Positions 1-26,894 of a stretch of 64,000 bases of DNA are shown here, piece after piece. This stretch comes from Gammaproteobacteria bacterium. GTDB lineage: Bacteria; Pseudomonadota; Gammaproteobacteria; JABABF01. The translations under genes and the position numbers were made by a program. Every line of letters begins with the position of its first letter. Positions within the stretch are counted from its first letter, which is position 1. The DNA is taken from contig OZ242171.1 of the NCBI GenBank assembly GCA_965205525.1, positions 89,993 through 153,992 of the forward strand. Reading direction: 5' to 3'. The notes beneath the pieces are model-generated. The model was not told where the DNA came from and made no database searches. It was given only the letters and a program-made list of their open reading frames with translations.

Positions 1-1
1 T

Positions 2-865
2 AACTCCTTATCTGTTTACAGAGTGGATGCTGCAGAGGAGGATCTTGAAAGTGTGGGCCCCAGGCTCATGGGAGAGAATCCATTCCACATAACCGCTACC
101 GAGGAAGTACTGATTGCCAGTAATAATGTTCAAATTTCCCTTTTTCAAATAAATGAGGACGATACCATCAGCGGCCCTGTCAGCAGTCTACAAGGCTTCT
201 CACCGAACAGTGTGGCGGCCAGTCCCGCTGGCGGTCTAGTGTTTACCAACTCTGTTCTCAGTTCTTTTCTAGGAGTTTGGCAGGTGCTGGGAATCCCCCG
301 GGTGCCGGCGGGGCAGGAAGTGCGGGTGATGGTGAATGCAGAGTCGGCGCTGGACACCGCCCTGACCGTGATGGTGCAGGCGAGGCAGGGCAGCCGGGTT
401 CGCATGGCAGCGGCGACTCTGATGCCGTCAGATACTCAGGCGGAGGCCGTGTTCTCGGGGAGTGATCTGGGTCAGGGCGAGTGGATATTTTCGGCATCGG
501 TGCCGGCAGATATGGCAGATATTGTGGATGTATCGGCGGCCCGGGCGACACTGCGGATTAGCGGTCCGCTTGTCAGGCTGGAAAACCTGTCGGGCGTAAT
601 ACCAGAAGGAGCAGATCTGAATATCAGAGTGAGCACGGAGGGAATGGTTCCTGTGGCAGGGGATACGGAGGTGACCTTGCAGGCAGCGCAGGAGGGCGCT
701 CAGCCTCGGACGGCGATGGGATTATTACGGGAGGGGCAGACATCGGTCACGGTGACCTTTGCCGGCAGGGAATCCCTGATCGAGGGTGACTGGGTCTTGT
801 CAGCATCATCAATCCTGCCCACAGATGCAAATTCTACGCTTGCAGTGACCGTCGGGCCGCCTTTG
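2..865 (+). repeat. Module unit 1.0 (partial): last propeller blades (divergent, AT-richer subtype), domain A and domain B.
   Basis: It contains the near-invariant domain-A string GGTGCCGGCGGGGCAGGAAGTGCGGGTGATGGTGAATGCAGAG starting at about 301. Its VWQVLGIPRV junction is identical to that of unit 4.1. Confidence 0.8.
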
Positions 866-3800
866 ATCAGGCTGACCCTCTCGGTGGACCAGGGAGTGTC
901 ATCAGGGGAGATGAGGCTGGTCCAGACTGATACTAAACCCGGCTTGGGAACTGAAGAAGGGCTTGCTGTCAGTCCAGACGGCAGGTGGCTGCTTGCCGGC
1001 GGCATAAGCGGCAGAGGCTTCATCAGGACCTTGGAGATAGACAGCGTCAGGGGCATTGCCACCCCGGTTGAACTTTATACTGGCCTGGGAGGCCGTAGCC
1101 TGGCAGTGAGCCGAGACAGCAGTCTTGTGTTTGCATCGGATAATGCCTTTATGAGCACTATCAGTGTCTGGCGCCTGAATGCCGATGATGGCAGCCTGGA
1201 GGGAGTGGCACAGTACACAGGGGGAGGAACAGATGCTGCAGGGAACACCGTCAGAGGGCTGATTTCCACCCATGATGTCGTGCTGAGCCCGGATGACCGC
1301 CTGCTGTTTGTGACGAGCAACGGAGAGTCAAATTCAAATAATGGCGCCCTCAGTGTGTGGAGAGTAAGCCCTTCCGGCACCCTTGTTCAGACCGATGTGC
1401 ATGTCTCTGGCGGGGGTGCGGATACAGAGGGCTTGAACGCAATTGCCGGTGCCGCCGTGACCCCGGACGGCCGCCTGCTGTTTGCAGGGTCATTCTACGA
1501 TTCTGGTTTTTTAGACCACAGCACGCTCGGCATCTGGCGCGTGAATGCTGAAGCGTCTGCGGTTTCCTTTGTGAGGACTCTTTCCGACAGACGCATGCTG
1601 CGCAGGCCCCGGGTTGTGACCCTCGGCCCCTCCGGCCGTTTTCTGTTTGTGTCCAGCCAGGTTGGTGCAGATGCTGAAACAGACCCACTGTCTGTTTACG
1701 AAGTGAATGCTGCAGAGGAGAATCTTGCAAGTGTGGCCTCCTATGGCGAGGACATATCGGGGGATGCCATCGGCCTGGCCGTCACCAGAGAAGTGCTGGC
1801 AGTGGCCGAATTTACGCAGGGCAGTGTCGCTCTTTGGCAGAGAAATGATAATGGCACCCTCCGTTTTGCCAGCAGGCATGATTCAGCCAGCCCGGTTAGC
1901 CTGGCGGCCAGTCCGGCCGGCGGTCTGGTGTTTAGCAGCTCAAGCTCAAATGATGGGTCTGTCGGCATCAGCGTCTGGCGGGTGCAGGGGATCCCGCGGG
2001 TGCCGGCGGGGCAGGAAGTGCGGGTGATGGTGAATGCAGAGTCGGCGCTGGGCTCCGCCCTGACCGTGATGGTGCAGGCGAGGCAGGGCAGCCGGGTCAG
2101 CATGGCAGCGGCGACTCTGATGCCGTCAGATATTCAGGCAGAGGCCGTGTTCTCGGGGCGTGATCTGGGCCAGGGCGAGTGGATATTTTCGGCATCGGTG
2201 CCGACAGATATGGCAGATGTTGCGGATGTATCGACGGCCCGGGCGACACTGCGCATTGGCGGTCCGCTTGTCAGGCTGGAAAACCTGTCGGGTGTAATAC
2301 CAGAAGGGGCAGATCTGAATATCAGAATAAGCACGGAGGGACACCCTGTGCTGGAGGATGCAGAGGTGACCTTGCGGGCAACGCAGCAAGGCGCCCAGCC
2401 TCGGACGGTGATGGGATTATTACGGGAGGAGCAGGCAGAAGTTACGGTGACCTTTGCCGGCAGGCAATCTCTAACCGAGGGTGACTGGGTCTTGTCAGCA
2501 GAATCATCAGTTCTGTCCACAGATGAAAATTCTGGGCTTGATGTGACCGTCAGGCCGCCTTTGCCCAGGCTGACCCTCTCGGTGAACCAGGGAGTGTCTT
2601 CAGGGGAGATGAGGCTGGTCCAGACTGATGCTAACACCGGCCTTCCAGCTGGAGATAGTGAAGGGCTTGCCGTCAGTCCAGACGGCAGGTGGCTGCTTGC
2701 CAGCGGCGGCGGCCGCATCACGGTCTGGGAGATAGACAGCGTCAGGGGCATTGTCACCCAGAGAAGTACGGAAATGGGTACTGGCCTGGGAGGCCGTGGC
2801 CTGGCAGTGAGCCGAGACAGCCGTCTTGTGTTTACGTCGGATCGTGCCAGTACTAGCACTATCAGTGTCTGGCGCCTGAATGCCGATAATGGCGGACTGG
2901 AGGAAGTGGCAAAGTACACAGGGGGAGAAACAGATGCTGCAGAGAACACCGTCAGAGGGCTGACTGTCACCCATGCTGTCGTGCTGAGCCCGGATGAGCG
3001 CCTGCTGTTTGTGACGAGCAATGGGAGGCTGGACGATGAAGGAGTCCCCTTCGGCGGCGCACTCAGTGTGTGGAATGTAAACCCTTCCGGCACCCTTGTT
3101 CAGACCAATGTGCATGTCTCTGCCGGGGCTGAGGATACAGAGGGCTTGAACCAGATTGCCGGTGCCGCCGTGACCCCGGACGGCCGCCTGCTGTTTGCAG
3201 GGTCATTCCACGATTTTGGTTCATTCGACCGCAGCACGCTCGGCATCTGGCGTGTGAATGCTGAAGCGTCTACGGTTTCCTTTGTGAGGACTCGTCAAGA
3301 CACCCGCATGCTGCGCAGGCCCCGGGTTGTGACCCTCGGCCCCGCCGGCCGTTTTCTTTTTGTATCCAGCCAAGTTCTTAATGACGCTCAAATAGATCCA
3401 CTGTCTGTTTACAGAGTAAATGCTGCAGAGGAGGATCTTGTAAGTCTGGCCTCCTATGGCAATGACATAGAAGGGAGGACCATCGGCCTGGCTGCCACCA
3501 GAGAAGTGCTGGCAGTGGCCGAGGAGGATGGTGGTGGTGGTGGTGTCTCTCTTTGGCAGAGAAATAATGACGGCACCCTCCGTTTTGTTAGAAGGCATGC
3601 TTCATTCAGGCCGATTGGCCTGGCGGCCAGTCCGGCCGGCGGTCTGGTGTTTAGCAGCTCAAACGAAGGGTCTGAAGGCATCATCGTCTGGCAGGTGCAG
3701 GGAATCCCGCGGGTGCCGGCGGGACAGGAAGTGCGGGTGATGGTGAATGCAGAGCAGGCGCCGGACTCTGCCCGGACCGTGATGGTGCAGGCGAGGCAGG

Positions 3801-6583
3801 GCAGCCGGGTCAGCATGGCAGCGGCGACTCTGATGCCGTCAGACACTCAGGCGGCGGCCGTGTTCTCGGGGCGTGATCTGGGCCAGGGCGAGTGGATATT
3901 TTCGGCATCGGGGCTGACAGATACGGCAAAACTGCGCATTGGCAATCCGCTTATCAGGCTGGAAAACCTGTCGGGCAGAATACCAGAAGGGGCAGATCTG
4001 AATATCAGAATAAGCACGGAGGGACACCCTGTGCTGGAGGATGCACAGGTGACCTTGCGGGCAACGCAGGAAGGCGCTCAGCCTCGGACCGTGATGGGAT
4101 TATTACAGGAGGGGGAGACATCGGTTACGGTGACATTTGCTGGCGAAAATGCCCTGACCGGGGGAGACTGGGTCTTGTCGGCAGAATCATCAATCCTGTT
4201 CACAGATGCAAATTCTGTGCTTACAGTGACCGTTATACCGCTGCCTAAGCTGACCCTCTCGGTAGACCAGGGAGTGTCCTCGGGGGAGATGAGGCTGGTC
4301 CAGACTGATAACAAACGCCTTGCAAGTGGAACTGAAGAAGGGCTTGCTGTCAGTCCAGACGGCAGGTGGCTGCTTGCCAGCGGCGGCGGCGGCATCACGG
4401 TCTGGGAGATAGACAGCGTCAGGGGCATGGTCACCCAGAGCAGTGATCGTATGGGTGCTGGCCTGGGGGGCCGTGGCCTGGCAGTGAGCCGAGACAGCAA
4501 TTTTGTGTTTACGTCGGATGGTGCCAGTACTAGCACTATCAGTGTCTGGCGCCTGGATGCCGATGATGGCGGACTGGAGGAAGTGGCAAAGTACACAGGG
4601 GGAGGAACAGATGCTGCAGAGAACACCGTCAGAGGGCTGAGCTCTGTTTGGGATGTCGTGCTGAGCCCGGATGACCGCCTGCTGTTTGTGACGAGCGCGG
4701 GGGTGTCAGATAATGGCGCCCTCAGTGTGTGGAGTGTAAACACTTCCGGCACCCTTGTTCAGACCGATGTGCACCCTGCCGGGGATTCGAACACAGAGGG
4801 CTTGAACGCAATTGCCGGTGCCGCCGTGACCCCGGATGGCCGCCTGCTGTTTGCAGGGTCAACGCGAGACAGGAGGCTCAGCCTCTGGCGCGTGAATGCT
4901 GAAGCGTCTACGGTTTCCTTTGTGAGGACTATTCCCGACAATATCGGGCTGCGCAGGCCCCGGGTTGTGACCCTCGGCCCCGCCGGCCGTTTTCTGTTTG
5001 TGTCCAACTCGATTAATTCGAGTGACAATGATTCAGATTCACTGTCTGTTTACAAAGTGAATGCTGCAGAGGAGGATCTTACACTTGTGGACTCCTATGG
5101 CGGGTTAGGGGTTACCTTCGGCCTGGCCGTCACCAGGGAAGTGCTGGCATTGGTCTCAAGAAGTCAGAGCAATGTCACTCTTTGGCAGAGAAATGCTTCC
5201 GGCACCCTCAGTTTTGTCAGCAGGCATGCTTCAGGCAGAGCGCATGGCCTGGCGGCCAGTCCGGCCGGCGGTCTGGTGTTTAGCAGTTCAAACAGTGGGT
5301 CTGAAGGCATCAGCGTCTGGCGGGTGCAGGGAATCCCGCGGGTGCCGGCGGGGCAGGAAGTGCGGGTGATGGTGAATGCAGAGCCGACGCTGGGCTCTGC
5401 CCTGACCGTGACGGTGCAGGCGCGGCAGGGCAGCCGGGTCAGCACGGCAACGGCGACTCTGATGCCGTCAAACACTCAGGCGGAGGCCGTGTTCTCGGGG
5501 AGTGATCTGGGCCCGGGCGAGTGGATATTTTCGGCATCGGTGCCGGCAGATATGGCAGATGTTGCGGATGTATCGACGGCCCGGGCGACACTGCGCATTA
5601 GCGGTCCGCTTGTCAGTTTGGAGATGACTGGCGGAAGTGCCATCGTTGCCTCGGACGGGATGATAACGCTTATCCTGCGCGTGATGCCGGCACTATCCTC
5701 CACGGTCATGGTGACCGTGGCGGTGACCGATGAAGACAACAATACGATATCAGAGCAGCTGGAGGCTCTGTCCTCTTCCCTGCGGCTCACTTTCCGCGCC
5801 AGTGATTTGGGAACAGGCCGTCTGCGCTTTACTGCCCGGGGGCCGGCAGGAGTATTAGAAGACAGCGAAGCCGAGGTGACCGTGCTGGTGGACACTGCTG
5901 CTGGTGTCGTTCTGTCTGCAAATCCCGAGGAGGATGTCTTTCCGGGCGATGAGGTGCGCCTGTCGGCAGAAGTACTCTCCGGGTCAGACCTGGCCGGGAT
6001 AGATGTCGTGCTGGAGGTGGCAGTTGCACCTCCCGATGGAAGCACGCGCAGCAATGTCCTGATACCAGTGTCGGCTGAAACCTCTACGGGCACCCTGACC
6101 TTTATCCCGGATGCAGTGCCGGGCACTTGGAATTTCAACGTAATAGAGAGCGATGGGATAAGCGTATCTGCGACACTTACAGTGATGGTGGCGGCAGTCG
6201 TGCCCCTGCCCCTGGACTTCAATAATCCATCGGACGGGGTAAGCGCAGATGACCTGGTGCTGCTTCTGCGCTATGAGAGGCTGTGTGCGGGGGGAGATTC
6301 CCGGCCGCTGCCGGCCAATTGCTCTGCCCTCGGTTCCGAGGCACTGGCGGCTGGACTTGCCTTTGACAGTTCTTCCGACCGGCTGGCAGATCTGCAGAAT
6401 GTCCAGCTGCCGGATGTGACCGGCACCGGTATCGGCAGCGTGCAGACACTGGCCATACTGCTGCAGGCCTTGGCAAATGTCCAAGACGAATTGCTTCTTC
6501 CCGCCGCTGCTTCATCCGCCGAGGCCGAGCAGGCTCGCGATGCGCGGCTTCGCATTATCCGGCAGCTCCTGGGACGGGAATAG
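2..6583 (+). CDS. Giant secreted repeat protein, paralog 1 (5' end cut by window edge). It alternates 7-bladed lactonase/YVTN-like beta-propeller modules with Ig-like beta-sandwich domains and ends in the conserved C-terminal cassette with a dockerin-like segment.
   Basis: The frame is open from position 2: NSLSVYRVDAAEEDL matches the internal blade motif DPLSVY.VNAAEE, so the GTG at 23 is not the start. There are four propeller modules, the first partial. Their blade motifs are AVSPDGRWLL, AVSRDS.LVF, VVLSPD.RLLFVTS, AAVTPDGRLLFAGS, VVTLGP.GRFLFVS, GLA.TREVLAVAE and LAASPAGGLVFS. The stop codon is TAG at 6581-6583. An uninterrupted 6.5-kb ORF cannot arise by chance. Confidence 0.85.
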   Translation, partial: NSLSVYRVDAAEEDLESVGPRLMGENPFHITATEEVLIASNNVQISLFQINEDDTISGPVSSLQGFSPNSVAASPAGGLVFTNSVLSSFLGVWQVLGIPRVPAGQEVRVMVNAESALDTALTVMVQARQGSRVRMAAATLMPSDTQAEAVFSGSDLGQGEWIFSASVPADMADIVDVSAARATLRISGPLVRLENLSGVIPEGADLNIRVSTEGMVPVAGDTEVTLQAAQEGAQPRTAMGLLREGQTSVTVTFAGRESLIEGDWVLSASSILPTDANSTLAVTVGPPLIRLTLSVDQGVSSGEMRLVQTDTKPGLGTEEGLAVSPDGRWLLAGGISGRGFIRTLEIDSVRGIATPVELYTGLGGRSLAVSRDSSLVFASDNAFMSTISVWRLNADDGSLEGVAQYTGGGTDAAGNTVRGLISTHDVVLSPDDRLLFVTSNGESNSNNGALSVWRVSPSGTLVQTDVHVSGGGADTEGLNAIAGAAVTPDGRLLFAGSFYDSGFLDHSTLGIWRVNAEASAVSFVRTLSDRRMLRRPRVVTLGPSGRFLFVSSQVGADAETDPLSVYEVNAAEENLASVASYGEDISGDAIGLAVTREVLAVAEFTQGSVALWQRNDNGTLRFASRHDSASPVSLAASPAGGLVFSSSSSNDGSVGISVWRVQGIPRVPAGQEVRVMVNAESALGSALTVMVQARQGSRVSMAAATLMPSDIQAEAVFSGRDLGQGEWIFSASVPTDMADVADVSTARATLRIGGPLVRLENLSGVIPEGADLNIRISTEGHPVLEDAEVTLRATQQGAQPRTVMGLLREEQAEVTVTFAGRQSLTEGDWVLSAESSVLSTDENSGLDVTVRPPLPRLTLSVNQGVSSGEMRLVQTDANTGLPAGDSEGLAVSPDGRWLLASGGGRITVWEIDSVRGIVTQRSTEMGTGLGGRGLAVSRDSRLVFTSDRASTSTISVWRLNADNGGLEEVAKYTGGETDAAENTVRGLTVTHAVVLSPDERLLFVTSNGRLDDEGVPFGGALSVWNVNPSGTLVQTNVHVSAGAEDTEGLNQIAGAAVTPDGRLLFAGSFHDFGSFDRSTLGIWRVNAEASTVSFVRTRQDTRMLRRPRVVTLGPAGRFLFVSSQVLNDAQIDPLSVYRVNAAEEDLVSLASYGNDIEGRTIGLAATREVLAVAEEDGGGGGVSLWQRNNDGTLRFVRRHASFRPIGLAASPAGGLVFSSSNEGSEGIIVWQVQGIPRVPAGQEVRVMVNAEQAPDSARTVMVQARQGSRVSMAAATLMPSDTQAAAVFSGRDLGQGEWIFSASGLTDTAKLRIGNPLIRLENLSGRIPEGADLNIRISTEGHPVLEDAQVTLRATQEGAQPRTVMGLLQEGETSVTVTFAGENALTGGDWVLSAESSILFTDANSVLTVTVIPLPKLTLSVDQGVSSGEMRLVQTDNKRLASGTEEGLAVSPDGRWLLASGGGGITVWEIDSVRGMVTQSSDRMGAGLGGRGLAVSRDSNFVFTSDGASTSTISVWRLDADDGGLEEVAKYTGGGTDAAENTVRGLSSVWDVVLSPDDRLLFVTSAGVSDNGALSVWSVNTSGTLVQTDVHPAGDSNTEGLNAIAGAAVTPDGRLLFAGSTRDRRLSLWRVNAEASTVSFVRTIPDNIGLRRPRVVTLGPAGRFLFVSNSINSSDNDSDSLSVYKVNAAEEDLTLVDSYGGLGVTFGLAVTREVLALVSRSQSNVTLWQRNASGTLSFVSRHASGRAHGLAASPAGGLVFSSSNSGSEGISVWRVQGIPRVPAGQEVRVMVNAEPTLGSALTVTVQARQGSRVSTATATLMPSNTQAEAVFSGSDLGPGEWIFSASVPADMADVADVSTARATLRISGPLVSLEMTGGSAIVASDGMITLILRVMPALSSTVMVTVAVTDEDNNTISEQLEALSSSLRLTFRASDLGTGRLRFTARGPAGVLEDSEAEVTVLVDTAAGVVLSANPEEDVFPGDEVRLSAEVLSGSDLAGIDVVLEVAVAPPDGSTRSNVLIPVSAETSTGTLTFIPDAVPGTWNFNVIESDGISVSATLTVMVAAVVPLPLDFNNPSDGVSADDLVLLLRYERLCAGGDSRPLPANCSALGSEALAAGLAFDSSSDRLADLQNVQLPDVTGTGIGSVQTLAILLQALANVQDELLLPAAASSAEAEQARDARLRIIRQLLGRE
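866..2563 (+). repeat. Module unit 1.1: propeller, Ig-like domain A and Ig-like domain B (about 1.7 kb).
   Basis: The unit begins at the junction [PI]RLTLSV[DN]QGV.SGEMRLVQTD. The domain-A string recurs at about 1999. Domain B begins with GGPLVRLENLSG. Confidence 0.85.
2564..4243 (+). repeat. Module unit 1.2: propeller + A + B.
   Basis: It has the same junction (PRLTLSVNQGVSSGEMRLVQTD) and the same A and B strings. It also contains the in-frame (GGT)5 run at 3530-3544. Confidence 0.85.
4244..5599 (+). repeat. Module unit 1.3: propeller + A only; it joins directly to the 3' cassette.
   Basis: The unit starts at PKLTLSVDQG. After RATLRISGPLVS the sequence switches to LEMTGGSAIVASDG, which is the start of the 3' cassette. 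Confidence 0.8.
5600..6583 (+). repeat. Conserved 3' cassette, copy 1: two Ig-like domains, a dockerin-like double segment and a charged helical tail.
   Basis: The landmarks are LEMTGGSAIVASDGMITLILRVMPALSSTV..., LDFNNPSDGVSADDLVLLLRY, LPDVTGTGIGSVQTLAILLQAL and AEAEQARDARLRIIRQLLGRE*. The same block of about 980 nt ends all four genes. Confidence 0.9.
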
Positions 6584-6876
6584 AGAGCAGTATCTGTTCT
6601 TCATGCCCTGAAACCCACTTTGCGATCCATTTCTTGCCTGCGATACTTATAGGTGCGCCCCTTGCAAACCGGAATGGCACTAGTAACTAGTAAAGGGGGA
6701 GGGGGGGATACAATTGCCGCAAGCAGGTGACCTGCAGCCCTGCTTGGATTCCTCCTGCTGCAGCACAGTTGTTTATGTTAGATAGTCCAAAACTTGGCAT
6801 GCTGGTGCGGCAGATAAGAATAGTACTGCTGCTGCCTCTGCTGCTGCTTGCCTCTGCCTCTGTTCTGGCACAGGCG
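6584..6876 (+). repeat. Conserved 5' cassette, copy 1: intergenic leader plus signal-peptide coding region.
   Basis: The string AGAGCAGTATCTGTTCTTCATGCCCTGAAACCCACTTTGCGATCCATTTCTTGCCTGCGAT...GGAATGGCACTAGTA...G-tract...CTGCAGCCCTGC...GCTGCAGCACAG is repeated at 13174 and 17496. Confidence 0.9.
6695..6707 (+). repeat. Homopolymeric G tract G5-A-G7 in the leader of paralog 2.
   Basis: Read directly from the sequence: taaaGGGGGaGGGGGGGata. Confidence 0.95.
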
Positions 6877-17784: not shown

Positions 17785-20700
17785 CCCAGGCTGACCCTCT
17801 CGGTGGATCAGGGAGTGCCCTCAGGGGAGCTCCGCCTAGTTAGGAAATCTGCCGCAAGTGGATCTAGCAGAAATCTTGGAGGACATGCCGTCAGTCCAGA
17901 CGGCAGGTGGCTGTTTTACGCTGGCAGTAATTTAGAGGTCTGGGAGATAGACAGTGCCAGAGGCATTGTCACGCAAAGGATGTCTTCTCCGCAGTCTGGC
18001 TTCTTTAGCTTCCTGGCAGTGAGCCGAGACAGCAGTCTTGTGTTTGTGCTGAATCGCCAAAATAACCAGATCACTGTCTTTCGCCTGAATGCCGATGATG
18101 GCAGACTGGAGGAAGTGGCAAAGTACACAGAGGGAGGAACAGATGCTGCAGGGAATACCGTCAGAGGGCTGACTAATGCTTCTGATGTCGTGCCAAGCCC
18201 GGATGGCCGACTGCTGTTTGTGACGAGCGGCGGGGATTCAGGGACTACCGGAGGCGCCCTCAGTGTGTGGAGTGTAAACTCCACCAGCACCCTCACTCAG
18301 ACCGATGTGCATGTCTCTGCCGGGGCTTCGGATACAGAGGGCTTGGAGAATGCTGCCGGTGCCGCCGTGACCCCGGACGGCCGCCTGCTGTTTGTAGGGT
18401 CATCCCACAATTTAGATTCATTAGACAACAGCACGCTCGGCATCTGGCGTGTGAATGCTGACGCGTCTACGGTTTCCTTTGTGAGGACTCTTTCCGACAG
18501 ACGCATGCTGCGCAGACCCCGGGTTGTGACCCTCGGCCCCGCCGGCCGTTTTCTGTTTGTGTCCAGCCGGGTTAGTGCAGATGCTGCAACAGATCCACTG
18601 TCTGTTTACGAAGTGAATGCTGCAGAGGAGAATCTTGCAAGTGTGGCCTCCTATGGCGAGGACGATGACATATTGGGGAATACCATCGGCCTGGCCGCCA
18701 CCAGAGAAGTGCTGGCAGTGGCCGAATTTGATCAGGGTAGTATCGCTCTTTGGCAGAGAAATGATGACGGCACCCTCCGCTTTGCCAGCAGGCATGATTC
18801 AGCCAGCTCGACTGGCCTGGCGGCCAGTCCGGCTGGTGGTCTGGTGTTTGTCAACTCATACCAAGAACGTTTCATAACTGTCTTGCAGGTGCTGGGAATC
18901 CCCCGGGTGCCGGCGGGGCAGGAAGTGCGGGTGATGGTGAATGCAGAGTCGGCGCTGGGCTCCGCCCTGACCGTGATGGTGCAGGCGAGGCAGGGCAGCC
19001 GGGTCAGCATGGCAGCGGCGACTCTGATGCCGTCAGATACTCAGGCGGAGGCCGTGTTCTCGGGGAGTGATCTGGGCCAGGGCGAGTGGATATTTTCGGC
19101 ATCGGTGCCGGCAGATATGGCAGATGTTGCGGATGTATCGACGGCCCGGGCGACACTGCGGATTGGCGGTCCGCTTGTCAGGCTGGAAAACCTGTCGGGC
19201 GCAATACCAGAAGGAGCAGATCTAAATATCAGAGTAAGCACGGAGGGGGCCCCCGTGCTGGGGGATGCGGAGGTGACCCTGCGGGCAGCGCAGGAAGGCG
19301 CTCGGCCTCGGACGGTGATGGGATTATTACGGGAAGGGCAGACATCGGTCACGGTGACCTTTGCCGGCAGGGGATCCCTGACCTTGGGTGACTGGGTCTT
19401 GTCAGCATCATCAATCCTGTCCACAGATGAAAATTCTACGCTTGCAGTGACCGTCGGGCCGCCTTTGCCCAGACTGACCCTCTCAGTGGACCAAGGAGTG
19501 CCATCAGGGGAGCTCCGCCTTAGGAGATCTTCTGCCGTAAGAACAAATTTAATTGGCAGTAAACGACTTGCCGTCAGTCCAGACGGCAGGTGGCTGCTTG
19601 CCAGCACCAGCTTCCGCATCACGCTCAGGGAGATAGACAGCGCTAGGGGCATTGTCGCGCGAAGAATGTCTTCTGCGAGTCCTGGCGCATCTCGCGGCCT
19701 GGCAGTGAGCCCAGACAGCAGTCTTGTGTTTGTGCCGAATGAATCAAATAACCAGATCACTGTCTTTCGCCTGAATGCCGATGAAGGCAGACTGGAGGAA
19801 GTGGCAAAGTACACAGAGGGAGGAGAAGATGCTGCAAGGAATCGCATCAGCGGGCTGGCTAATGCTGATGATGTCGTGCCAAGCCCGGATGGCCGCCTGC
19901 TGTTTGTGACGAGCAGAGGGGCTGCCAACGCCCTCAGTGTGTGGAATGTAAACCCTTCCGGCACCCTTGTTCAGACCGATGTGCATGTCTTTGCCGGAGC
20001 TTTGGGTAACCAGGCTGCCGGTGCCGCCGTGACCCCGGACGGCCGCCTGCTGTTTGTAGGGGGGGCTGGTACGCTCAGCATCTGGCGTGTGAATGCTGAA
20101 GCGTCTACGGTTTCCTTTGTGAGGACTCTTTCCGACAGACGCAGGCTGCGCAGACCCTCGGTTGTGACCCTCGGCCCCGCCGGCCGTTTTCTGTTTGTGT
20201 CCAGCCAGTTTGCTGCAGATTCTGCAACAGATCCACTGTCTGTTTACGAAGTGAATGCTGAAGAGGAGAATCTTGCAAGTCTGGCCTCCTATGGCGATGA
20301 CATAGAAGGGTCTGCCAGAGGTCTGGCCGCCACCAGAGAAGTGCTGGCAGTGGCCGAATTCAAATTGTCGCAGGGTAGTATCGCTCTTTGGCAGAGAAAT
20401 GCTTCCGGCACCCTCAGTTTTGTCAGCAGGCATGATTCACGCCTCCCGGTTGACCTGGCGGCCAGTCCGGCCGGCGGTCTGGTGTTTATCAGTTCAAATC
20501 GTTCGTCTGAAGGCATCAGCGTCTGGCAGGTGCAGGGAATCCCGCGGGTGCCGGCGGGGCAGGAAGTGCGGGTGATGGTGAATGCAGAGCCGGCGCCGGA
20601 CTCTGCCCTGACCGTGACGGTGCAGGCGAGGCAGGGCAGCCGGGTCAGCACGGCAGAGGCGACTCTGATGCCGTCAGGCACTCTGGCAGTGGCCGAGTTC

Positions 20701-23700
20701 CCGGGGAGTGATCTGGGCCCGGGCGAGTGGATATTTTCGGCATCGGTGTCGGCAGATATGCCGGCAGATATGGCAGATGTTGCGGATGTATCGGCGGCCC
20801 GGGCGACACTGCGGATTAGCGGTCCGCTTATCAGGCTGGAAAACCTGTCGGGCGAAATACTGCAGGGAGCAGATCTGAATATCAGAGTGAGCACGGAGGG
20901 AATGGTTCCTGTGGCAGGGAATGCGGAGGTGACCCTGCGGGCAACTCAGGAAGGTGCCCAGCCTCGGATGGTGGTGGGATTATTACGGAAGGGGCAGATA
21001 TCATTTACGGTGACCTTTGCCGGCGGATCAGTCCTGACCGCGGGTGACTGGGTCTTGTCGGCAGAATCATCAATCCCCCTGCTCCGCACAGATTCAAGTT
21101 CTTTCCTTGTAGTGACCGTCAGACCGCCGCCGCTTATCAGGCTGGAAAACCTGTCGGGCGAAATACTGCAGGGAGCAGATCTGAATATCAGAGTGAGCAC
21201 GGAGGGAATGGTTCCTGTGGCAGGGAATGCGGAGGTGACCCTGCAGGCAACCCAAGAAGGCGCCCAGCCTCAGACGGTGATGGGATTATTACGGGAGGGG
21301 CAGACATCGGTTACGGTAACCTTTGCCGGCGAGAAAGCCCTGACCGAGGGTGACTGGATCTTGTCGGCAGAATCATCAATTCTGCTGTCCACAGATGCAA
21401 ATTCTACCTTTGCAGTGACCGTCGGACCTCCTTTGCCTAGGCTGACCCTCTCAGTGGACCAGGGAGTGCCTTCGGGGGAGATGAGGCTGGTCCAGACTGA
21501 TGCTACCAGCCTTCTAGATTCATTAATATTTACAGGAGGGCTTGTTGCTGTCAGTCCAGACGGCAGGTGGCTGCTTGCCAGCGGCGGCGGCCGCATCACG
21601 CTCAGGGAGATAGACAGCGCTAGGGGCATTGTTACCCCGGTAGCAACTTATCGGGGTGCTGGCCTGGGAGGTAATAGTCTGGCAGTGAGCCGAGACAGCA
21701 GTCTTGTGTTTACGTCGGATAGGAACACCAGTACTAGCACTATCAGTGTCTGGCGCCTGGATGCCGATGATGGCAGACTGGAGGAAGTGGCAAAGTACAC
21801 AGAGGGAGGAACAGATGCTGCAGGGAACACCGTCAGAGGGCTGATTTTCACCCATGGTGTCGTGCTGAGCCCGGATGACCGCCTGCTGTTTGTGACGAGC
21901 AGGGGGGAGCCAGACAGTGCCGGAGGCGCCCTCAGTGTGTGGAGTGTAAATCCCTCCGGCACCCTTGTTCAGACCGATGTGCATATCTCTGCTGGGGCTT
22001 CGGATACAGAGGGCTTGAACCGGGCTGCCGGTGCCGCCGTGACCCCGGACGGCCGCCTGCTGTTTGTAGGGTCATTCTACGATTCTGATTCATTAGACAG
22101 CAGCACACTCGGCATCTGGCGTGTGAATGCTGAAGCGTCTACGGTTTCCTTTGTGAGGACTCTTTCCGACAGACGCATGCTGCGAAGACCCCGGGTTGTG
22201 ACCCTCGGCCCGGACGGCCGTTTTCTGTTTGTATCCAGCCAGGTTGATAATGATGCTGCAATAGATCCACTGTCTGTTTACGAAGTGAATGCTGCAGAGG
22301 AGAATCTTGCAAGTGTGGCCTCCTATGGCGATGACATATCGGGGGATACCATCGGCCTGGCCGCCACCAGAGAAGTGCTGGCAGTGGCCGAATCTTCGCT
22401 GGATGGTGTCGCTCTTTGGCAGAGAAATGATAACGGTACCCTCAGTTTTGCCAGCAGGCATGATTCAGCCAGCCCGGCTGGCCTGGCGGCCAGTCCAGCC
22501 GGCGGTCTGGTGTTTAGCGGCTCATCCGATAGGTCTGTCGGCATCACCGTCTGGCAGGTGCAGGGAATCCCGCGGGTGCCGGCAGGGCAGGAAGTGCGGG
22601 TGATGGTGAATGCAGAGCCGGCGCCAGACTCTGCCCTGACCGTGATGGTGCAGGCGAGGCAGGGCAGCCGGGTTCGTATGGCAGCGGCGACTCTGATGCC
22701 GTCAGATACTCAGGCGGAGGCAGTGTTCTCGGGGAGTGCTCTGGGCCAGGGCGAGTGGATATTTTCGGCATCGGTGCCGGCAGATATGGCAGATAGGGCA
22801 GATAGGACGGCTCTGTCGGCAGCCCGGGCGACACTGCGCATCGGCGGGCCGCTTATCAGGCTTTCAAACCTGTCGGGCGTAATACTGCAGGGAGCAGATC
22901 TGAATATCAGAGTAAGCACGGAGGGACACCCCGTGCTGGAGGATGCAGAAGTGACCCTGCGGGCAACTCAGGAAGGCGCCCGGCCTCGGATGGTGGTGGG
23001 ATTATTACGGAAGGGGCAGATATCATTTACGGTGACCTTTGCCGGCGGATCAGTCCTGACCGCGGGTGACTGGGTCTTGTCGGCAGAATCATCAATCCCC
23101 CTGCTCCGCACAGATTCAAGTTCTTTCCTTGTAGTGACCGTCAGACCGCCGCCGCTTATCAGGCTGGAAAACCTGTCGGGCGCAATACCAAAAGGAGCTG
23201 ATCTGAATATCAGAGTAAGCACGGAGGGAATGGTTCCTGTGGCAGGGAATGCGGAGGTGACCCTGCAGGCAACCCAAGAAGGCGCCCAGCCTCAGACGGT
23301 GATGGGATTATTACGGGAGGGGCAGACATCGGTTACGGTGACCTTTGCTGGCGAGAAAGCCCTGACCGAGGGTGACTGGATCTTGTCGGCAGAATCATCA
23401 ATTCTGCTGGGCACAGATGCAAATTCTATGCTTGCAGTGACCGTCAGGCTGCCCAGACTGACCCTCTCGGTGGACCAGGGAGTGCCGTCAGGGGAAATGA
23501 GGCTGGTCCAGACTGATGTTAACACCGACCTTATGAGTAGATCAGTATATCCAGAAGGGCTTACTGTCAGTCCAGACGGCAGGTGGCTGCTTGCCAGCGG
23601 CGGCGGCATCACGGTCTGGGAGATAGACAGCGTCAGGGGCATTGTCACCACGGTAGAAACTTATCGGGGTACTGGCCTGGGAGGTAATGGTCTGGCAGTG

Positions 23701-26700
23701 AGCCGAGACAGCAGTCTTGTGTTTACATCGCATGGTGCCAGTATTAGCACTATCAGTGTCTGGCGCTTGGATGCCGATGATGGCAGTCTGGCGGAAGTGG
23801 CACAGTACACAGAGGGAGGAGAAGATGCTGCAGGGAATATCGTCAGAGGGCTGACTTTCACCCATGATGTCGTGCTGAGCCCGGATGACCGCCTGCTGTT
23901 TGTGACGAGCAGGGGGGAGCCAGACAGTGCCGGAGGCGCCCTCAGTGTGTGGAGTGTAAACTCTTCCGGCACCCTTGTTCAGACCGATGTGCATGTCTCT
24001 GCCGGGGCTTCGGATACAGAGGGCTTGAACCGGGCTGCCGGTGCCGCCGTGACCCCGGACGGAGGCCTGCTGTTTGTAGGGTCAGACTACGACGATCAGC
24101 AATTGGATAAGAGTACGCTCAGCATCTGGCGTGTGCGTGTGAATGCTGAAACGTCTACGGCTACGGTCTCCTTTGTGAGGACTCTTTCCGACGAACGCAT
24201 GCTGAGCAGACCCTGGGTTGTGACCCTAGGCCCCTCCGGCAGTTTTCTGTTTGTGTCCAGCCAGATTGTTGATGCAGATGCTGAAACAGATCTACTGTCT
24301 GTTTACGAAGTGAATGCTGCAGAGGAGAATCTTGCAAGTGTGGCCTCCTATGGCGAGGACGACATATTGAGGGCTGCCTTTGGCCTGGCCGCCACCAGAG
24401 AAGTGCTGGCAGTGGCCGAACTTTCGCAGGGTAGTGTCTCTCTTTGGCGGAGAAACAATGACGGCACCCTCCGCTTTGCTAGCAGGCATGCTTCAGACAT
24501 CCCGTTTGACCTGGTGGCCAGTCCAGCCGGCGGTCTGGTGTTTAGCAGCTCATTCGGGGATGCTGGCAGCGTCTGGCAGGTACAGGGAATCCCGCGGGTG
24601 CCGGCGGGGCAGGAAGTGCGAGTGATGGTGAATGCAGAGTCGGCGCTGGACTCCGCCCTGACCGTGATGGTGCAGGCGAGGCAGGGCAGCCGGGTCAGCA
24701 CGGCAGCGGCGACTCTGATGCCGTCAGATACTCAGGCGGAGGCCGTGTTCTCGGGGAGCACTCTGGGCCAGGGCGAGTGGATATTTTCGGCATCGGTGCC
24801 GGCAGATATGGCAGATGTTGCGGATGTATCGGCGGCCCGGGCGACACTGCGCATCGGCAGTCCGCTTGTCAGGCTGGAAAACCTGTCGGGCGCAATACGA
24901 GAAGGAGCAGATCTGAATATCAGAATAAGCACGGAGGGACACCCTGTGCTGGAGGATGCACAGGTGACCTTGCGGGCAACACAGGAAGGCGCTCGGCCTC
25001 GGACGGTGATGGGATTATTACGGGAGGGGCAGACATCGGTCACGGTGACCTTTGCCGGCGAGAAAGCCCTGACCCAAGGTGTATGGATCGTGTCGGCGGA
25101 GACATCGTCAACGCTGTTGCAGACAGATGCAAATTCTACCCTTGCAGTGACTGTCGGACCGCCTTTGCCCAAGCTGACCTTCTCCCTGCAGGAGACTGCA
25201 GAGCCAGTGGTGCCGGCAGGCAGTACTTTGGAGGTTACGGTGATGGCAGATCGTCCCCTGCTGCAGACTCTGACGGTGACGGTACAGGCAGTTCGTACCG
25301 TTACAGCACCGCCGACGGTGACGACAGCAACGGTGACGACTCAGCTATTTGCACAAGAGCAGGTCGGAAGGGCTCTCTTTGAAGGGGAGAATACGCTGTC
25401 CCCAGGCCAATGGGTCCTGACGATTGCGAAAGTCCTGCCCGAGAACTCTGCCGAAGCATCCACTCAGCAGCTGCAGGTGAGGGTAGGATCATCAGCCCTT
25501 GGCCTGTCGGCACCAATGGGTCTGTTCCAAGGGCGGGATGCGGTGATTGAGGTAAATACGGAGGTGGCGCTGGGGGTGGAGGTGCGTGTCATGGTGATGG
25601 CAACCCATGCAGAAGCTCCAGCCACAACGGCATCAGCCGCCGCCGTACTTGGACCCTCTGCACTTGCCGCCGAAGCGAGGTTCCCTGCGGACATGCTGAG
25701 CTTGGTGAGAGAGGGGACTTGGGATTTTGAGATTACTGCGGCGACGCCCTCTGTACTGATGATAGATACGGAGGCTTTTCCCCTAGTGGACTTCACAGAG
25801 GCATCGGCAACACTGCAAGTGACAGAAGAGCCGACTCTTCTCCTGGAGCTGACTGGCGGAAGTGCCATCGTTGCCTCGGACGGGATGATAACGCTTATCC
25901 TGCGCGTGATGCCGGCACTATCCTCCACGGTCATGGTGACCGTGGCGGTGACCGATGAAGACAACAATACGATATCAGAGCAGCAGGAGGCTCTGTCCTC
26001 TTCCCTGCGGCTCACTTTCCGCGCCAGTGATTTGGGAACAGGCCGTCTGCGCTTTACTGCCCGGGGGCCGGCAGGAGTATTAGAAGACAGCGAAGCCGAG
26101 GTGACCGTGCTGGTGGCCACTGCTGCTGGTGTCGTTCTGTCTGCAAATCCCGAGGGAGATGTCTTCCCGGGTGATGAGGTGCGCCTGTCGGCAGCAGTAC
26201 TCTCCGGGCCAGACCCGGCCGGGATAGATGTCGTGCTGGAGGTGGCAGTTACGGATCCCGATGGAAGCACGCGCAGCAATGTCCTGATACCAGTGTCGGC
26301 TGAAACCTCTACGGGCGGCCTGACCTTTATCCCGGATGCAGTGCCGGGCACTTGGAATTTCAACGTAATAGAGAGCGATATGGTAAGCGCATCTATGATA
26401 CTTACAGTGGTGGTGGCGGCAGTCATGCCCCTGGACTTCAACGATCCATCGGACGAGGTAAGCGCAGATGACTTGGTGCTGCTTCTGCGCTATGAGAGGC
26501 TGTGTGCAGAGGGAAGTTCCCCGCCGTTGCCGGCCAGCTGCACTGACCTCGGTTCCGAGGCACTGGCGGCTGGACTTGCCCTTGAAAGTTCTCCCGACCG
26601 GCTGGCAGATCTGCAGAATGTCCGGCTGCCGGATGTGACCGGCACTGGTGTCGGCAGTGTGCAGACACTGACTATACTGCTGCAGGCCTTGGCAAATGTC

Positions 26701-26820
26701 CAAGACGAATTACTTCTTCCCGCCGCTGCTTCCTCTCTGCCGGAGACGACAATCGCCGAGGCCGAGCAGGCTCGCGATGCACGGCTTCGCATTATCCGGC
26801 AGCTCCTGGGACGGGAATAG
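17686..26820 (+). CDS. Giant secreted repeat protein, paralog 4, the longest at about 3044 codons. Order: signal peptide, four propeller units (two carry doubled B domains), two divergent Ig-like domains, conserved C-terminal cassette.
   Basis: The ORF is 9.1 kb and uninterrupted. The MLVRQIR methionine of the other paralogs is ATA (Ile) here at 17710-17712, so ATG 17686 (MLDSSKLGILVRQIR...) is the first usable conserved start. The stop is TAG at 26818-26820. Confidence 0.8.
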   Translation: MLDSSKLGILVRQIRIVLLLPLLLASVSVLAQAPRLTLSVDQGVPSGELRLVRKSAASGSSRNLGGHAVSPDGRWLFYAGSNLEVWEIDSARGIVTQRMSSPQSGFFSFLAVSRDSSLVFVLNRQNNQITVFRLNADDGRLEEVAKYTEGGTDAAGNTVRGLTNASDVVPSPDGRLLFVTSGGDSGTTGGALSVWSVNSTSTLTQTDVHVSAGASDTEGLENAAGAAVTPDGRLLFVGSSHNLDSLDNSTLGIWRVNADASTVSFVRTLSDRRMLRRPRVVTLGPAGRFLFVSSRVSADAATDPLSVYEVNAAEENLASVASYGEDDDILGNTIGLAATREVLAVAEFDQGSIALWQRNDDGTLRFASRHDSASSTGLAASPAGGLVFVNSYQERFITVLQVLGIPRVPAGQEVRVMVNAESALGSALTVMVQARQGSRVSMAAATLMPSDTQAEAVFSGSDLGQGEWIFSASVPADMADVADVSTARATLRIGGPLVRLENLSGAIPEGADLNIRVSTEGAPVLGDAEVTLRAAQEGARPRTVMGLLREGQTSVTVTFAGRGSLTLGDWVLSASSILSTDENSTLAVTVGPPLPRLTLSVDQGVPSGELRLRRSSAVRTNLIGSKRLAVSPDGRWLLASTSFRITLREIDSARGIVARRMSSASPGASRGLAVSPDSSLVFVPNESNNQITVFRLNADEGRLEEVAKYTEGGEDAARNRISGLANADDVVPSPDGRLLFVTSRGAANALSVWNVNPSGTLVQTDVHVFAGALGNQAAGAAVTPDGRLLFVGGAGTLSIWRVNAEASTVSFVRTLSDRRRLRRPSVVTLGPAGRFLFVSSQFAADSATDPLSVYEVNAEEENLASLASYGDDIEGSARGLAATREVLAVAEFKLSQGSIALWQRNASGTLSFVSRHDSRLPVDLAASPAGGLVFISSNRSSEGISVWQVQGIPRVPAGQEVRVMVNAEPAPDSALTVTVQARQGSRVSTAEATLMPSGTLAVAEFPGSDLGPGEWIFSASVSADMPADMADVADVSAARATLRISGPLIRLENLSGEILQGADLNIRVSTEGMVPVAGNAEVTLRATQEGAQPRMVVGLLRKGQISFTVTFAGGSVLTAGDWVLSAESSIPLLRTDSSSFLVVTVRPPPLIRLENLSGEILQGADLNIRVSTEGMVPVAGNAEVTLQATQEGAQPQTVMGLLREGQTSVTVTFAGEKALTEGDWILSAESSILLSTDANSTFAVTVGPPLPRLTLSVDQGVPSGEMRLVQTDATSLLDSLIFTGGLVAVSPDGRWLLASGGGRITLREIDSARGIVTPVATYRGAGLGGNSLAVSRDSSLVFTSDRNTSTSTISVWRLDADDGRLEEVAKYTEGGTDAAGNTVRGLIFTHGVVLSPDDRLLFVTSRGEPDSAGGALSVWSVNPSGTLVQTDVHISAGASDTEGLNRAAGAAVTPDGRLLFVGSFYDSDSLDSSTLGIWRVNAEASTVSFVRTLSDRRMLRRPRVVTLGPDGRFLFVSSQVDNDAAIDPLSVYEVNAAEENLASVASYGDDISGDTIGLAATREVLAVAESSLDGVALWQRNDNGTLSFASRHDSASPAGLAASPAGGLVFSGSSDRSVGITVWQVQGIPRVPAGQEVRVMVNAEPAPDSALTVMVQARQGSRVRMAAATLMPSDTQAEAVFSGSALGQGEWIFSASVPADMADRADRTALSAARATLRIGGPLIRLSNLSGVILQGADLNIRVSTEGHPVLEDAEVTLRATQEGARPRMVVGLLRKGQISFTVTFAGGSVLTAGDWVLSAESSIPLLRTDSSSFLVVTVRPPPLIRLENLSGAIPKGADLNIRVSTEGMVPVAGNAEVTLQATQEGAQPQTVMGLLREGQTSVTVTFAGEKALTEGDWILSAESSILLGTDANSMLAVTVRLPRLTLSVDQGVPSGEMRLVQTDVNTDLMSRSVYPEGLTVSPDGRWLLASGGGITVWEIDSVRGIVTTVETYRGTGLGGNGLAVSRDSSLVFTSHGASISTISVWRLDADDGSLAEVAQYTEGGEDAAGNIVRGLTFTHDVVLSPDDRLLFVTSRGEPDSAGGALSVWSVNSSGTLVQTDVHVSAGASDTEGLNRAAGAAVTPDGGLLFVGSDYDDQQLDKSTLSIWRVRVNAETSTATVSFVRTLSDERMLSRPWVVTLGPSGSFLFVSSQIVDADAETDLLSVYEVNAAEENLASVASYGEDDILRAAFGLAATREVLAVAELSQGSVSLWRRNNDGTLRFASRHASDIPFDLVASPAGGLVFSSSFGDAGSVWQVQGIPRVPAGQEVRVMVNAESALDSALTVMVQARQGSRVSTAAATLMPSDTQAEAVFSGSTLGQGEWIFSASVPADMADVADVSAARATLRIGSPLVRLENLSGAIREGADLNIRISTEGHPVLEDAQVTLRATQEGARPRTVMGLLREGQTSVTVTFAGEKALTQGVWIVSAETSSTLLQTDANSTLAVTVGPPLPKLTFSLQETAEPVVPAGSTLEVTVMADRPLLQTLTVTVQAVRTVTAPPTVTTATVTTQLFAQEQVGRALFEGENTLSPGQWVLTIAKVLPENSAEASTQQLQVRVGSSALGLSAPMGLFQGRDAVIEVNTEVALGVEVRVMVMATHAEAPATTASAAAVLGPSALAAEARFPADMLSLVREGTWDFEITAATPSVLMIDTEAFPLVDFTEASATLQVTEEPTLLLELTGGSAIVASDGMITLILRVMPALSSTVMVTVAVTDEDNNTISEQQEALSSSLRLTFRASDLGTGRLRFTARGPAGVLEDSEAEVTVLVATAAGVVLSANPEGDVFPGDEVRLSAAVLSGPDPAGIDVVLEVAVTDPDGSTRSNVLIPVSAETSTGGLTFIPDAVPGTWNFNVIESDMVSASMILTVVVAAVMPLDFNDPSDEVSADDLVLLLRYERLCAEGSSPPLPASCTDLGSEALAAGLALESSPDRLADLQNVRLPDVTGTGVGSVQTLTILLQALANVQDELLLPAAASSLPETTIAEAEQARDARLRIIRQLLGRE
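17785..19467 (+). repeat. Module unit 4.1: divergent-subtype propeller + A + B.
   Basis: The unit starts PRLTLSVDQGVPSGELRLVRKSAASG and contains NNQITVFRLNADDGRLEEVAKYTEGG. The A string lies at about 18906. Confidence 0.85.
19468..21435 (+). repeat. Module unit 4.2: divergent-subtype propeller + A + B' + B (about 2.0 kb).
   Basis: The unit starts PRLTLSVDQGVPSGELRLRRSSAVR. It carries two consecutive B-type domains, each starting LIRLENLSGEILQGADLNIRVSTEGMVPVAGNAE. Confidence 0.85.
21436..23451 (+). repeat. Module unit 4.3: propeller + A + B' + B (about 2.0 kb).
   Basis: The B'+B segment 22963-23442 is nearly identical to 20941-21420, at an offset of 2022 bp. Confidence 0.85.
23452..25167 (+). 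repeat. Module unit 4.4: propeller + A + B.
   Basis: The junction is PRLTLSVDQGVPSGEMRLVQTDVNTD. The A string lies at about 24599. Confidence 0.85.
25168..25839 (+). repeat. Two divergent Ig-like domains (E1-E2), homologous to 10288 to about 10950 in paralog 2.
   Basis: PKLTFSLQETAEPVVPAGSTLEVTVMADRPLLQTLTVTVQAVRTVTAPPTV aligns with the paralog 2 E1 block with scattered substitutions. Confidence 0.75.
25840..26820 (+). repeat. Conserved 3' cassette, copy 4.
   Basis: It is homologous over its full length to the other copies. It has an 18-nt insertion (LPETTI) at 26737-26754. Homology with the other copies continues 12 nt past the stop (TAGAGAGCAGTA) and then ends. Confidence 0.9.
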
Positions 26821-26894
26821 AGAGCAGTAAGCGAAGAGCTGCTGTTTAGCGCATCCTATTGTTTTCCGGAGCGGAATAGGAAGCACAGAGGTGA

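Follow-up and report, generated by a model that had tools for sequence, protein, structure and literature searches.

A head-to-tail array of four giant genes for lysine-poor, multi-propeller proteins in a gammaproteobacterial genome

Layout of the array and its genes

The window analysed here is a 64 kb stretch of contig OZ242171.1 from a gammaproteobacterium, and its first part (window 1-26820) holds a tandem array of four giant genes, g1 to g4, which is the subject of this report; 26.9-64 kb is the remainder. An earlier note on this DNA had described a head-to-tail array of paralogs, and this was confirmed by four + strand open reading frames in tandem without internal stops (2..6583, 6727..13173, 13242..17495 and 17638..26820), separated by three intergenic spacers of ~215 nt that are nearly identical to one another. 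The predicted proteins measure at least 2193 amino acids (aa) for the 5′-truncated g1, 2124 aa for g2, 1370 aa for g3 and 3044 aa for g4. Together they contain 11 complete propellers and one partial propeller of the seven-bladed PF10282 type, matching the 12 propeller modules previously counted in 27 kb. Each propeller is followed by 1-3 beta-sandwich modules of ~95 aa, and all four genes close with a common cassette of ~320 aa, the last ~125 aa of which are called the C-terminal domain (CTD).

The frame of g1 has no upstream stop and starts inside a propeller blade (NSLSVYRVDAAEEDL...), so that this gene is truncated by the window edge. The coding sequences of g2 (P0002) and g3 (P0001) were placed at 6799..13173 and 13383..17495, both from the ATG of MLVRQ; the g2 frame is open from 6727 and that of g3 from 13242, running through a G13 tract. 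The N-termini of g2, g3 and g4 are alike, [M/I]LVRQIRIVLLLPLLL(L)AS[AV]SVLAQA followed by PRLTLSVDQG, and the common signal peptide ending in AQA that had been proposed was thus seen in all three. These Sec-type signal peptides, read directly from the translation rather than called by a predictor, span 6799..6876 in g2 (MLVRQIRIVLLLPLLLLASASVLAQA), 13383-13457 in g3 and 17710-17784 in g4. The MLVRQ start has ATA instead of ATG in g4 (17710-17712), and translation must therefore start upstream at ATG 17686 (MLDSSKLG...), which places g4 (P0027) at 17686..26820 with MLDSSKLGILVRQ as its N-terminus. Given this ATA, it is uncertain at which codons the other paralogs start.

A module map was built from landmark motifs, with SP denoting the signal peptide, P a propeller of ~370 aa, A (~93 aa) and B (~100 aa) beta-sandwich modules, X a run of extra beta-sandwich modules and C the terminal cassette. 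In this code g1 reads ..P'AB-PAB-PAB-PA-C, g2 SP-PAB-PAB-X,B-C, g3 SP-PAB-PA-C and g4 SP-PAB-PABB-PABB-PAB-X-C, all on the + strand. The partial propeller of g1 (2..289) consists of the last blades of a divergent 'ATEEVLIAS' subtype and is followed by g1a (866..1987, 374 aa), g1b (2564..3700, 379 aa) and g1c (4244..5329, 362 aa). Two complete propellers each were located in g2 (g2a, 6877..8007, 377 aa; g2b, 8593..9708, 372 aa) and g3 (g3a, 13458..14582, 375 aa; g3b, 15156..16277, 374 aa), and four in g4 (g4a, 17785..18894, 370 aa; g4b, 19468..20535, 356 aa; g4c, 21436..22563, 376 aa; g4d, 23452..24585, 378 aa). The A/B blocks lie at 290-865, 1988-2563, 3701-4243 and 5330-5611 in g1 and at 8008-8592 and 9709-10287 in g2. 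Unit g3a has its modules A (93 aa) and B (98 aa) at 14583..15155, the second equivalent block of g3 is at 16278-16529, and the A/B(/B) blocks of g4 are at 18895-19467, 20536-21435, 22564-23451 and 24586-25167. The X run of g2 (529 aa) with its one B occupies 10288..12204 and is beta-sandwich-like; the short X run of g4 (223 aa, 25168..25836) is 93% identical in DNA to part of it. The two beta-sandwich domains of the cassette are found at 5612..6208 (g1), 12205..12795 (g2), 16530..17120 (g3) and 25837..26427 (g4), and the CTDs at 6209..6580 (g1, 124 aa), 12796..13170 (g2), 17121..17492 (g3) and 26428..26817 (g4, with a 6-aa insert, LPETTI).

A repeat finder independently recovered 12 copies of an A-region repeat with 73-93% identity, spaced 1.63-2.03 kb apart where units of 1.7-2.0 kb had been claimed, and the terminal cassette, put at about 1 kb before, in four copies of 85-97% identity. 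The propeller paralogs are 77-88% identical in DNA and 63-82% in protein, and no pair is identical. Since all copies are distinct, the array is not an assembly duplication of one gene, an outcome that the earlier note had wanted checked, and similar arrays have been assembled independently from other samples.

Predicted folds, the C-terminal domain and lysine content

The likeness of the propellers to the seven-bladed Lactonase family was borne out by profile, model and structure searches. The Pfam profile PF10282 matched with 97.3 and 104.7 bits (gathering cut-off 21.7; 1e-27 to 1e-30), and its matches are spread over 5 stretches per protein. An AlphaFold model of unit g3a (566 aa, input alignment of 23 units) reached a pLDDT of 86.5 and a pTM of 0.84 and displayed 28 blade strands, that is seven four-stranded blades, followed by two beta-sandwiches. 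The best PDB matches of this model in Foldseek were the 6-phosphogluconolactonases 1ri6 and 6nau together with seven-bladed WD40 proteins (TM 0.72-0.79), the two lactonases having a TMt of 0.72-0.73 at E ~1e-12. The periplasmic gluconolactonase PpgL (6igb) was also matched, and identity to the lactonase enzymes is just 14-18%. Integrin alpha-X (4neh_A), with its propeller and Ig-like legs, was aligned across the whole unit. The suggested resemblance to YVTN repeats was not upheld, as neither TIGR02276 nor the PKD model came up at E<=0.1 in the NCBIfam and Pfam scans, and the Big models also stayed below threshold. In the NCBIfam scan of the array proteins the 6-phosphogluconolactonase (6-PGL), delta-60 and PQQ-propeller matches were all far below threshold, the 6-PGL equivalog scoring 44 bits against a cut-off of 370.

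No Pfam match was obtained for modules A, B and X or for the cassette. The label 'Ig-like' previously given to these domains is thereby left without profile support, and what stands is the beta-sandwich fold seen in the AlphaFold models. The model of the g3 terminal cassette gave two beta-sandwiches (pLDDT 60-75) and a helical CTD (pLDDT 40-55); its Foldseek matches were generic MG/Ig/FnIII tandems only, with the S-layer protein Sap and the biofilm scaffold RbmA among them. The Pfam and NCBIfam matches include no RTX, autotransporter, two-partner secretion (TPS) or Bap-like domain, in agreement with the earlier description of the architecture. Nor did either database match a PEP-CTERM, GlyGly-CTERM, LPXTG or T9SS C-terminal sorting domain in the array proteins, whose C-terminus is an amphipathic charged helix (...ARLRIIRQLLGRE) and not a transmembrane helix with a basic tail.

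The CTD carries the dockerin-reminiscent motifs ADDLVLLLRY and DVTGTG and holds both of the two cysteines of each array protein. A HMMER profile of the CTD run against 1.84 billion cluster representatives returned 54 clusters, 50 with E<=1e-10, and in 50/50 of the latter the matched protein, up to 7371 aa long, carries the domain at its very C-terminal end. A signal-peptide-like N-terminus is present in most full-length members, and many members are without a propeller; six such propeller-less members gave no significant Pfam match when scanned, one having a sub-threshold ChlamPMP_M. As the CTD is common to the whole superfamily and the propeller is often absent, it is the CTD and not the propeller that defines the superfamily.

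The dockerin-like character attributed to the C-terminus was not recovered. PF00404 gave no match at E<=10, and the CTD profile run against PDB returned no dockerin and showed no detectable similarity to PilY1 or any solved structure. In hhalign the probability was 0.65% against an approximate clostridial dockerin sequence, with ADDLVLLLRY aligned at the expected dockerin helix. The CTDs of the window have degenerate Ca-binding loops; relatives P0015-P0017 each have one canonical DxSGDGxxxxxD loop, and in P0010, P0012 and P0014 the C-terminus is of another kind, has two of these loops and matches PF00404 below threshold (E 0.21). With Pfam, PDB profile and hhalign all negative, the CTD is treated as an unannotated domain and not as a dockerin, although its motifs are such that it may be distantly dockerin-like. 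A cohesin partner was not found in the 64-kb window.

The array proteins are acidic (pI 4.5-4.6), and their lysine content is extremely low. The g1 to g4 proteins contain 7, 6, 1 and 16 lysines (0.07-0.53%) at 6.3-6.7% arginine, compared with 2.8% lysine in the housekeeping proteins of the window (n=16). Each convincing CTD-bearing relative (P0003-P0069), propeller-less members included, has 0.04-0.8% lysine, and the superfamily as a whole is depleted about 10-fold. Lysine deserts as a general concept are treated in PMC10665810, and the ubiquitination of bacterial surface proteins, likewise at the level of the general concept, in PMC10032600.

Coding-strand GC skew is strongly positive, at 0.06-0.17, in the array (window 1-26000) and about 0-0.08 in 26000-64000, a difference that probably stems from amino-acid composition.

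Variation among propellers, strains and spacers

The distribution of variation within the propeller was obtained by overlaying the column entropy of the 11 window propellers on the strand map of the model. The B-C loops have an entropy of 1.46 bits and 4% invariant positions and the D-A loops 0.95 bits, compared with 0.16 bits and 82% invariant positions in the A-B loops, which form the SPDG turns, and 0.48 bits in both the C-D loops and the strands. Variation is thus concentrated on one face, made up of the B-C and D-A loops, with the SPDG turns on the opposite face; 'face' here follows from the loop alternation in a four-stranded antiparallel blade and WD40 naming, not from model coordinates. 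The B-C/D-A side is the usual ligand-binding face of propellers.

Protein identity between propellers is below DNA identity, and the pooled Nei-Gojobori ratio of non-synonymous to synonymous substitution rates (dN/dS) is 1.09 for the propeller (median; pairs 0.74-1.87). By part it is 1.50 in D-A loops, 1.15 in B-C loops, 0.42 in A-B loops and 1.14 in strands, and outside the propeller it is lower, at 0.83 in module A, 0.69 in module B and 0.52 in the CTD. When the same code was applied to four flanking genes compared across strains, in which 10 changes were synonymous and 2 non-synonymous, dN/dS was 0.07. The four frames are stop-free over 26.2 kb and every indel is in-frame. In a neutral simulation at 6-10% divergence per lineage the probability that all 11 propellers stay open was P<1e-8, which together with the in-frame indels excludes neutral decay.

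L083:1-18035 is the syntenic locus of another strain of the same species. Compared with window 1-34196, it matches at 99.28% in a flank of 7388 nt, but over the array the alignment is a mosaic of 75-92% identity. The two arrays differ in their modules and in the number of genes, and that of L083 closes with a gene resembling g2 and lacks counterparts to g3 and g4. Even the closest allele pair between the two arrays has a dS of 0.177, whereas the flank stands at 0.012.

A word-indexed search of 5.8 billion proteins gave 26 relatives, none of them named by its source, and no characterised homolog was found in the protein database searches. A pattern search with g3 among GTDB species representatives matched 247 stretches with no relative among them, the transketolase of the window reached 65% identity at best, to various Gammaproteobacteria, and the published literature searched contained no description of a propeller-CTD family. 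The window's own contig (1,998,239 bp) also encodes P0006 (817 aa), P0020 (2060 aa) and P0038 (5337 aa, 9 propellers), which together with the array take up >50 kb of a ~2 Mb genome. Tandem giants also occur elsewhere (ENA ERZ2506-2507 series, with contig names that give the impression of long-read metagenomes), with proteins of 3319 and 905+6149 aa at L001, of 2309+, 4123 and 3327 aa at L085 and of 5520 and 5280 aa at L086. At L086:3127-5708 there is a pilV gene (TIGR02523, 4e-15) with three or four prepilin-type (TIGR02532) genes, directly upstream of the two CTD-bearing giants (6001-22563 and 22675 onwards) and with no pilY1-like gene between pilins and giants at this locus. These pilin neighbours may hint at how the giants are exported or displayed.

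The spacers contain homopolymer tracts. The G13 at 13278-13290 in spacer 2 (13174..13382), upstream of g3, is the sole homopolymer of at least 9 bases in the 64 kb, and spacers 1 (6584..6798) and 3 (17496..17685), upstream of g2 and g4, hold the interrupted tracts G5AG7 (6695-6707) and G5AG6 (17607-17618), both followed by aTACAAT. In spacers of the window type a -10-like box (TACAAT; TATAAT in L083) stands immediately 3′ of the tract. Relatives have G14 (L083 at 3744, same species), G8 (L001 at 9975) and G13 (L085 at 18660), and the distant genomes L002 (9963) and L084 (9697) have C13 just upstream of giant genes. Tract length thus varies among homologous spacers (G13, G14, G8, G5AG7, G5AG6), as far as homopolymer lengths in assemblies, which may err, are correct, and the G/C tracts are candidate phase-variation switches. 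Translational switching through a conserved upstream ATG reading through the G tract was considered and rejected, as only g3 fits it; in L083 that frame meets a TAA within the TATAAT box, so an effect on promoter spacing fits better. A conserved inverted repeat in the 5′ leader was not significant as RNA structure (z = +1.23), and no Rfam match was found within the array.

The remainder of the window (26.9-64 kb) is ordinary chromosomal housekeeping and includes NDH-2, hemN-like, rdgB, metW/X, proC, gshB, argH, hemCD, metF, ahcY, metK, tkt-gap-pgk-fba, rpiA, ilvA, rnr, hemF and aroE. As the earlier note had stated, no secretion or anchoring gene is among them. The only Rfam and ARAGORN matches in the window were a 6S RNA (56407-56588, - strand; Rfam, 77.7 bits) and a tRNA-Arg(CCG) (28703-28779, - strand). 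Two fusions were seen among the neighbours. At 26895-28523 (-) a type II NADH dehydrogenase (Pyr_redox_2 + NDH2_C) is fused to a C-terminal cyclic-nucleotide-binding domain, an arrangement also kept in L083, and at 45010-46023 (-), adjoining metK-ahcY-metF, an ArsR-type HTH is fused to a SAM-dependent methyltransferase domain.

Interpretation and comparison with known systems

We favour, with moderate confidence, the reading that the array is a repertoire of exported, fibre-like, multivalent binding proteins of adhesin- or receptor-like kind, located at the surface or secreted, and with the same confidence, as part of it, that diversifying selection acts on one side of the propeller heads, as the pattern of substitutions suggests. 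The sub-claims of phase variation, of the CTD as an anchor and of a meaning for the loss of lysine are weaker than this overall reading. Of the earlier description, which envisaged an extracellular, multivalent adhesin, matrix or binding role, the propeller architecture was supported, and the dockerin and YVTN parts were not.

The Sec signal peptide would carry each protein over the inner membrane. The mature chain is pictured as beads on a string; the propeller fold itself is backed by profile match and model, and on that model the propellers would act as ligand-binding heads and the beta-sandwiches as rigid spacers. Blade strands and the SPDG-turn face are kept while the opposite face with its B-C and D-A loops varies, and this variable face may be where ligands are bound. 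New combinations would arise as modules are duplicated and shuffled, probably with gene conversion as well, both inside the tandem genes and between them, and such reshuffling would account for the very different arrays observed in close strains. The CTD, being the only part common to the whole superfamily, propeller-less members included, may serve to dock each protein on a conserved secretion machine or surface anchor whose gene lies elsewhere. Slippage of the tract by the -10-like box would probably make the expression of individual paralogs phase-variable, and the near-absence of lysine could reflect selection against lysine-directed attack or modification at the site of action.

Several points weigh against this picture. 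In Gram-negative bacteria a Sec signal gets a protein just to the periplasm, and an export route across the outer membrane was not identified within the window. The strands also have a dN/dS near 1 (1.14), as relaxed constraint would likewise give, Nei-Gojobori is crude for recombining paralogs, and a Sawyer-type run test for gene conversion was modest (p ~0.017). The CTD model is of low confidence (pLDDT 40-55), and some family genes (L086) are without a tract. Finally, relatives in assemblies of 4-5x coverage have frameshifted tails or are split into two ORFs (P0004, P0005/P0031 at L001:10001-12718 and 12825 onwards, P0022, P0023 and P0026), and these frameshifts could be sequencing error, decay or real switching.

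A structural coat or matrix, that is a self-assembling S-layer-like or biofilm scaffold with a mechanical role and no ligand recognition, would fit the acidic and cysteine-poor composition, the appearance of Sap and RbmA among the matches of the terminal beta-sandwich pair, the large share of a ~2 Mb genome taken up by the family and a gross architecture, a seven-bladed propeller then beta-sandwiches, repeated, that is the same as in archaeal YVTN-PKD proteins. Lattices need conserved contacts, yet here one entire face of the propeller is hypervariable, strains whose flanks are 99.3% identical differ in how many genes they have and in the order of the modules, and the TIGR02276 (YVTN) and PKD models are unmatched. 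Contingency-type homopolymer tracts are moreover unexpected for a constitutive coat, and bacterial S-layer proteins are usually lysine-rich, compared with 0.07-0.5% lysine in the array proteins, and a coat is considered unlikely. Another proposal is a variant of the repertoire reading that names the export route: the giants would be adhesins at the tip of a pilus or pseudopilus, exported or displayed through machinery of the type IV pilus or type II secretion-like kind, with the CTD binding the minor-pilin tip complex by analogy with PilY1. The basis for it is a single locus, L086, where pilV and prepilin-type genes directly precede two CTD giants without a pilY1-like gene between them, and the Sec signal peptides are as in type II secretion substrates and PilY1. 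No pilin genes stand beside the giants in the window, L001, L002, L083, L084 and L085, and no likeness of the CTD to PilY1 or to a solved structure could be detected, so this variant is rated as quite unlikely.

That the array encodes active lactonases strung together so as to concentrate activity locally outside the cell (6-phosphogluconolactonase-like, gluconolactonase-like or acyl-homoserine-lactone-degrading) is very improbable, even though PF10282 is matched and 1ri6, 6nau and PpgL (6igb) are the best structural matches. Identity to those enzymes is 14-18% and the 6-PGL score 44 bits vs 370, the face that would bear the active site is the hypervariable one with 4% invariant B-C loops, dN/dS is ~1, and propeller-less members keep the signal peptide, the CTD and the lysine depletion. 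Hardly credible is an assembly artefact, in which a collapsed or expanded repeat was made from a single gene, or a set of neutrally drifting pseudogenes. A dN/dS near 1 across most of the genes and the frameshifted relatives in other assemblies speak for it, but the copies differ by 12-23% in DNA with every junction unique, 26.2 kb are stop-free with in-frame indels only (simulated neutral P<1e-8), conservation is structured (SPDG turns 82% and B-C loops 4% invariant) and other samples have independently yielded comparable arrays. Polymorphic toxins were also considered and rejected, as it is the C-terminal part that is conserved and none of the array genes is followed by a small immunity-like gene.

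Beyond the binding repertoire favoured here, a more far-reaching combination is possible but doubtful as a whole. It holds that the CTD marks a previously unrecognised export or anchoring pathway serving giant, essentially lysine-free proteins in a few uncultured ~2 Mb Gammaproteobacteria, that the propeller arrays are combinatorial variable receptors with a hypervariable face per propeller, module shuffling between genes and homopolymer-controlled expression, and that lysine avoidance is protective, shielding from ubiquitin tagging or from cross-linking by transglutaminase or lysyl oxidase of a host. Multigene families of large surface proteins that evolve fast and may be phase-variable are in themselves familiar; tandem lactonase-type propellers as variable heads, an unannotated, very rare CTD and superfamily-wide lysine avoidance are not described in the literature searched. 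If true, a small-genome bacterium devotes at least 2.5% of its DNA to the propeller-CTD family, and the beta-propeller would be a diversifiable recognition scaffold, a role better known in eukaryotic receptors than in bacterial adhesins. The family would then offer a handle on how reduced-genome uncultured bacteria recognise or evade partners, on how proteins of several thousand residues are exported or anchored without known sorting signals and on why an entire protein superfamily purges lysine, and the CTD profile is a specific probe for such proteins in new genomes.

Among known systems, the surface-layer protein of Methanosarcina mazei (PDB 1L0Q; Jing et al., 2002) reportedly consists of tandem YVTN propeller and PKD domains, and the array proteins resemble such archaeal YVTN-PKD proteins in being extracellular-type chains of repeated seven-bladed propeller and beta-sandwich units. 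They differ from them by the missing TIGR02276 and PKD matches, the bacterial host, the distinct CTD, the tandem paralog arrays, the single hypervariable propeller face and the lysine depletion. With the 6-phosphogluconolactonases (E. coli YbhE 1ri6, K. pneumoniae 6nau, P. aeruginosa PpgL 6igb) they share PF10282 and the seven-bladed fold. Those lactonases are single-domain proteins of ~330-360 aa, whereas the window genes have 2-4 propellers each in proteins of 140-320 kDa, with at least 4 propellers in g1 and up to 9 propellers and 7371 aa in relatives, and the putative active face is hypervariable in the array at 14-18% overall identity.

The PilY1/PilC tip adhesins are likewise Sec-exported, large and of beta-propeller type, and the L086 giants follow minor-pilin genes; PilY1, however, has a single C-terminal propeller and no such CTD, and the window is without pilin genes. 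Integrin alpha has a seven-bladed head followed by Ig-like 'legs', as reflected in the alignment of 4neh_A, but is eukaryotic with one propeller per chain, and the analogy is one of fold order only, with no homology implied. As for the type I dockerin (PF00404), there is a likeness between ADDLVLLLRY and the dockerin helix, and DVSGDGxxxxxD loops occur in distant relatives, whereas the two segments of the CTD are ~40 aa apart with the Cys pair in the gap, an extra C-terminal amphipathic helix is present and the profile match is not significant. Phase-variable surface families include Bordetella fim with poly-C, Neisseria opc/porA with poly-G/C and Chlamydia pmp with poly-G. The genes described here are like these in forming an exported multigene family with G/C tracts of 13-14 nt by a -10-like box and in that paralogs and strains differ in tract length and interruptions; they are unlike them in their unrelated protein architecture, in a gene length of 4-20 kb and in that switching is a proposal from sequence.

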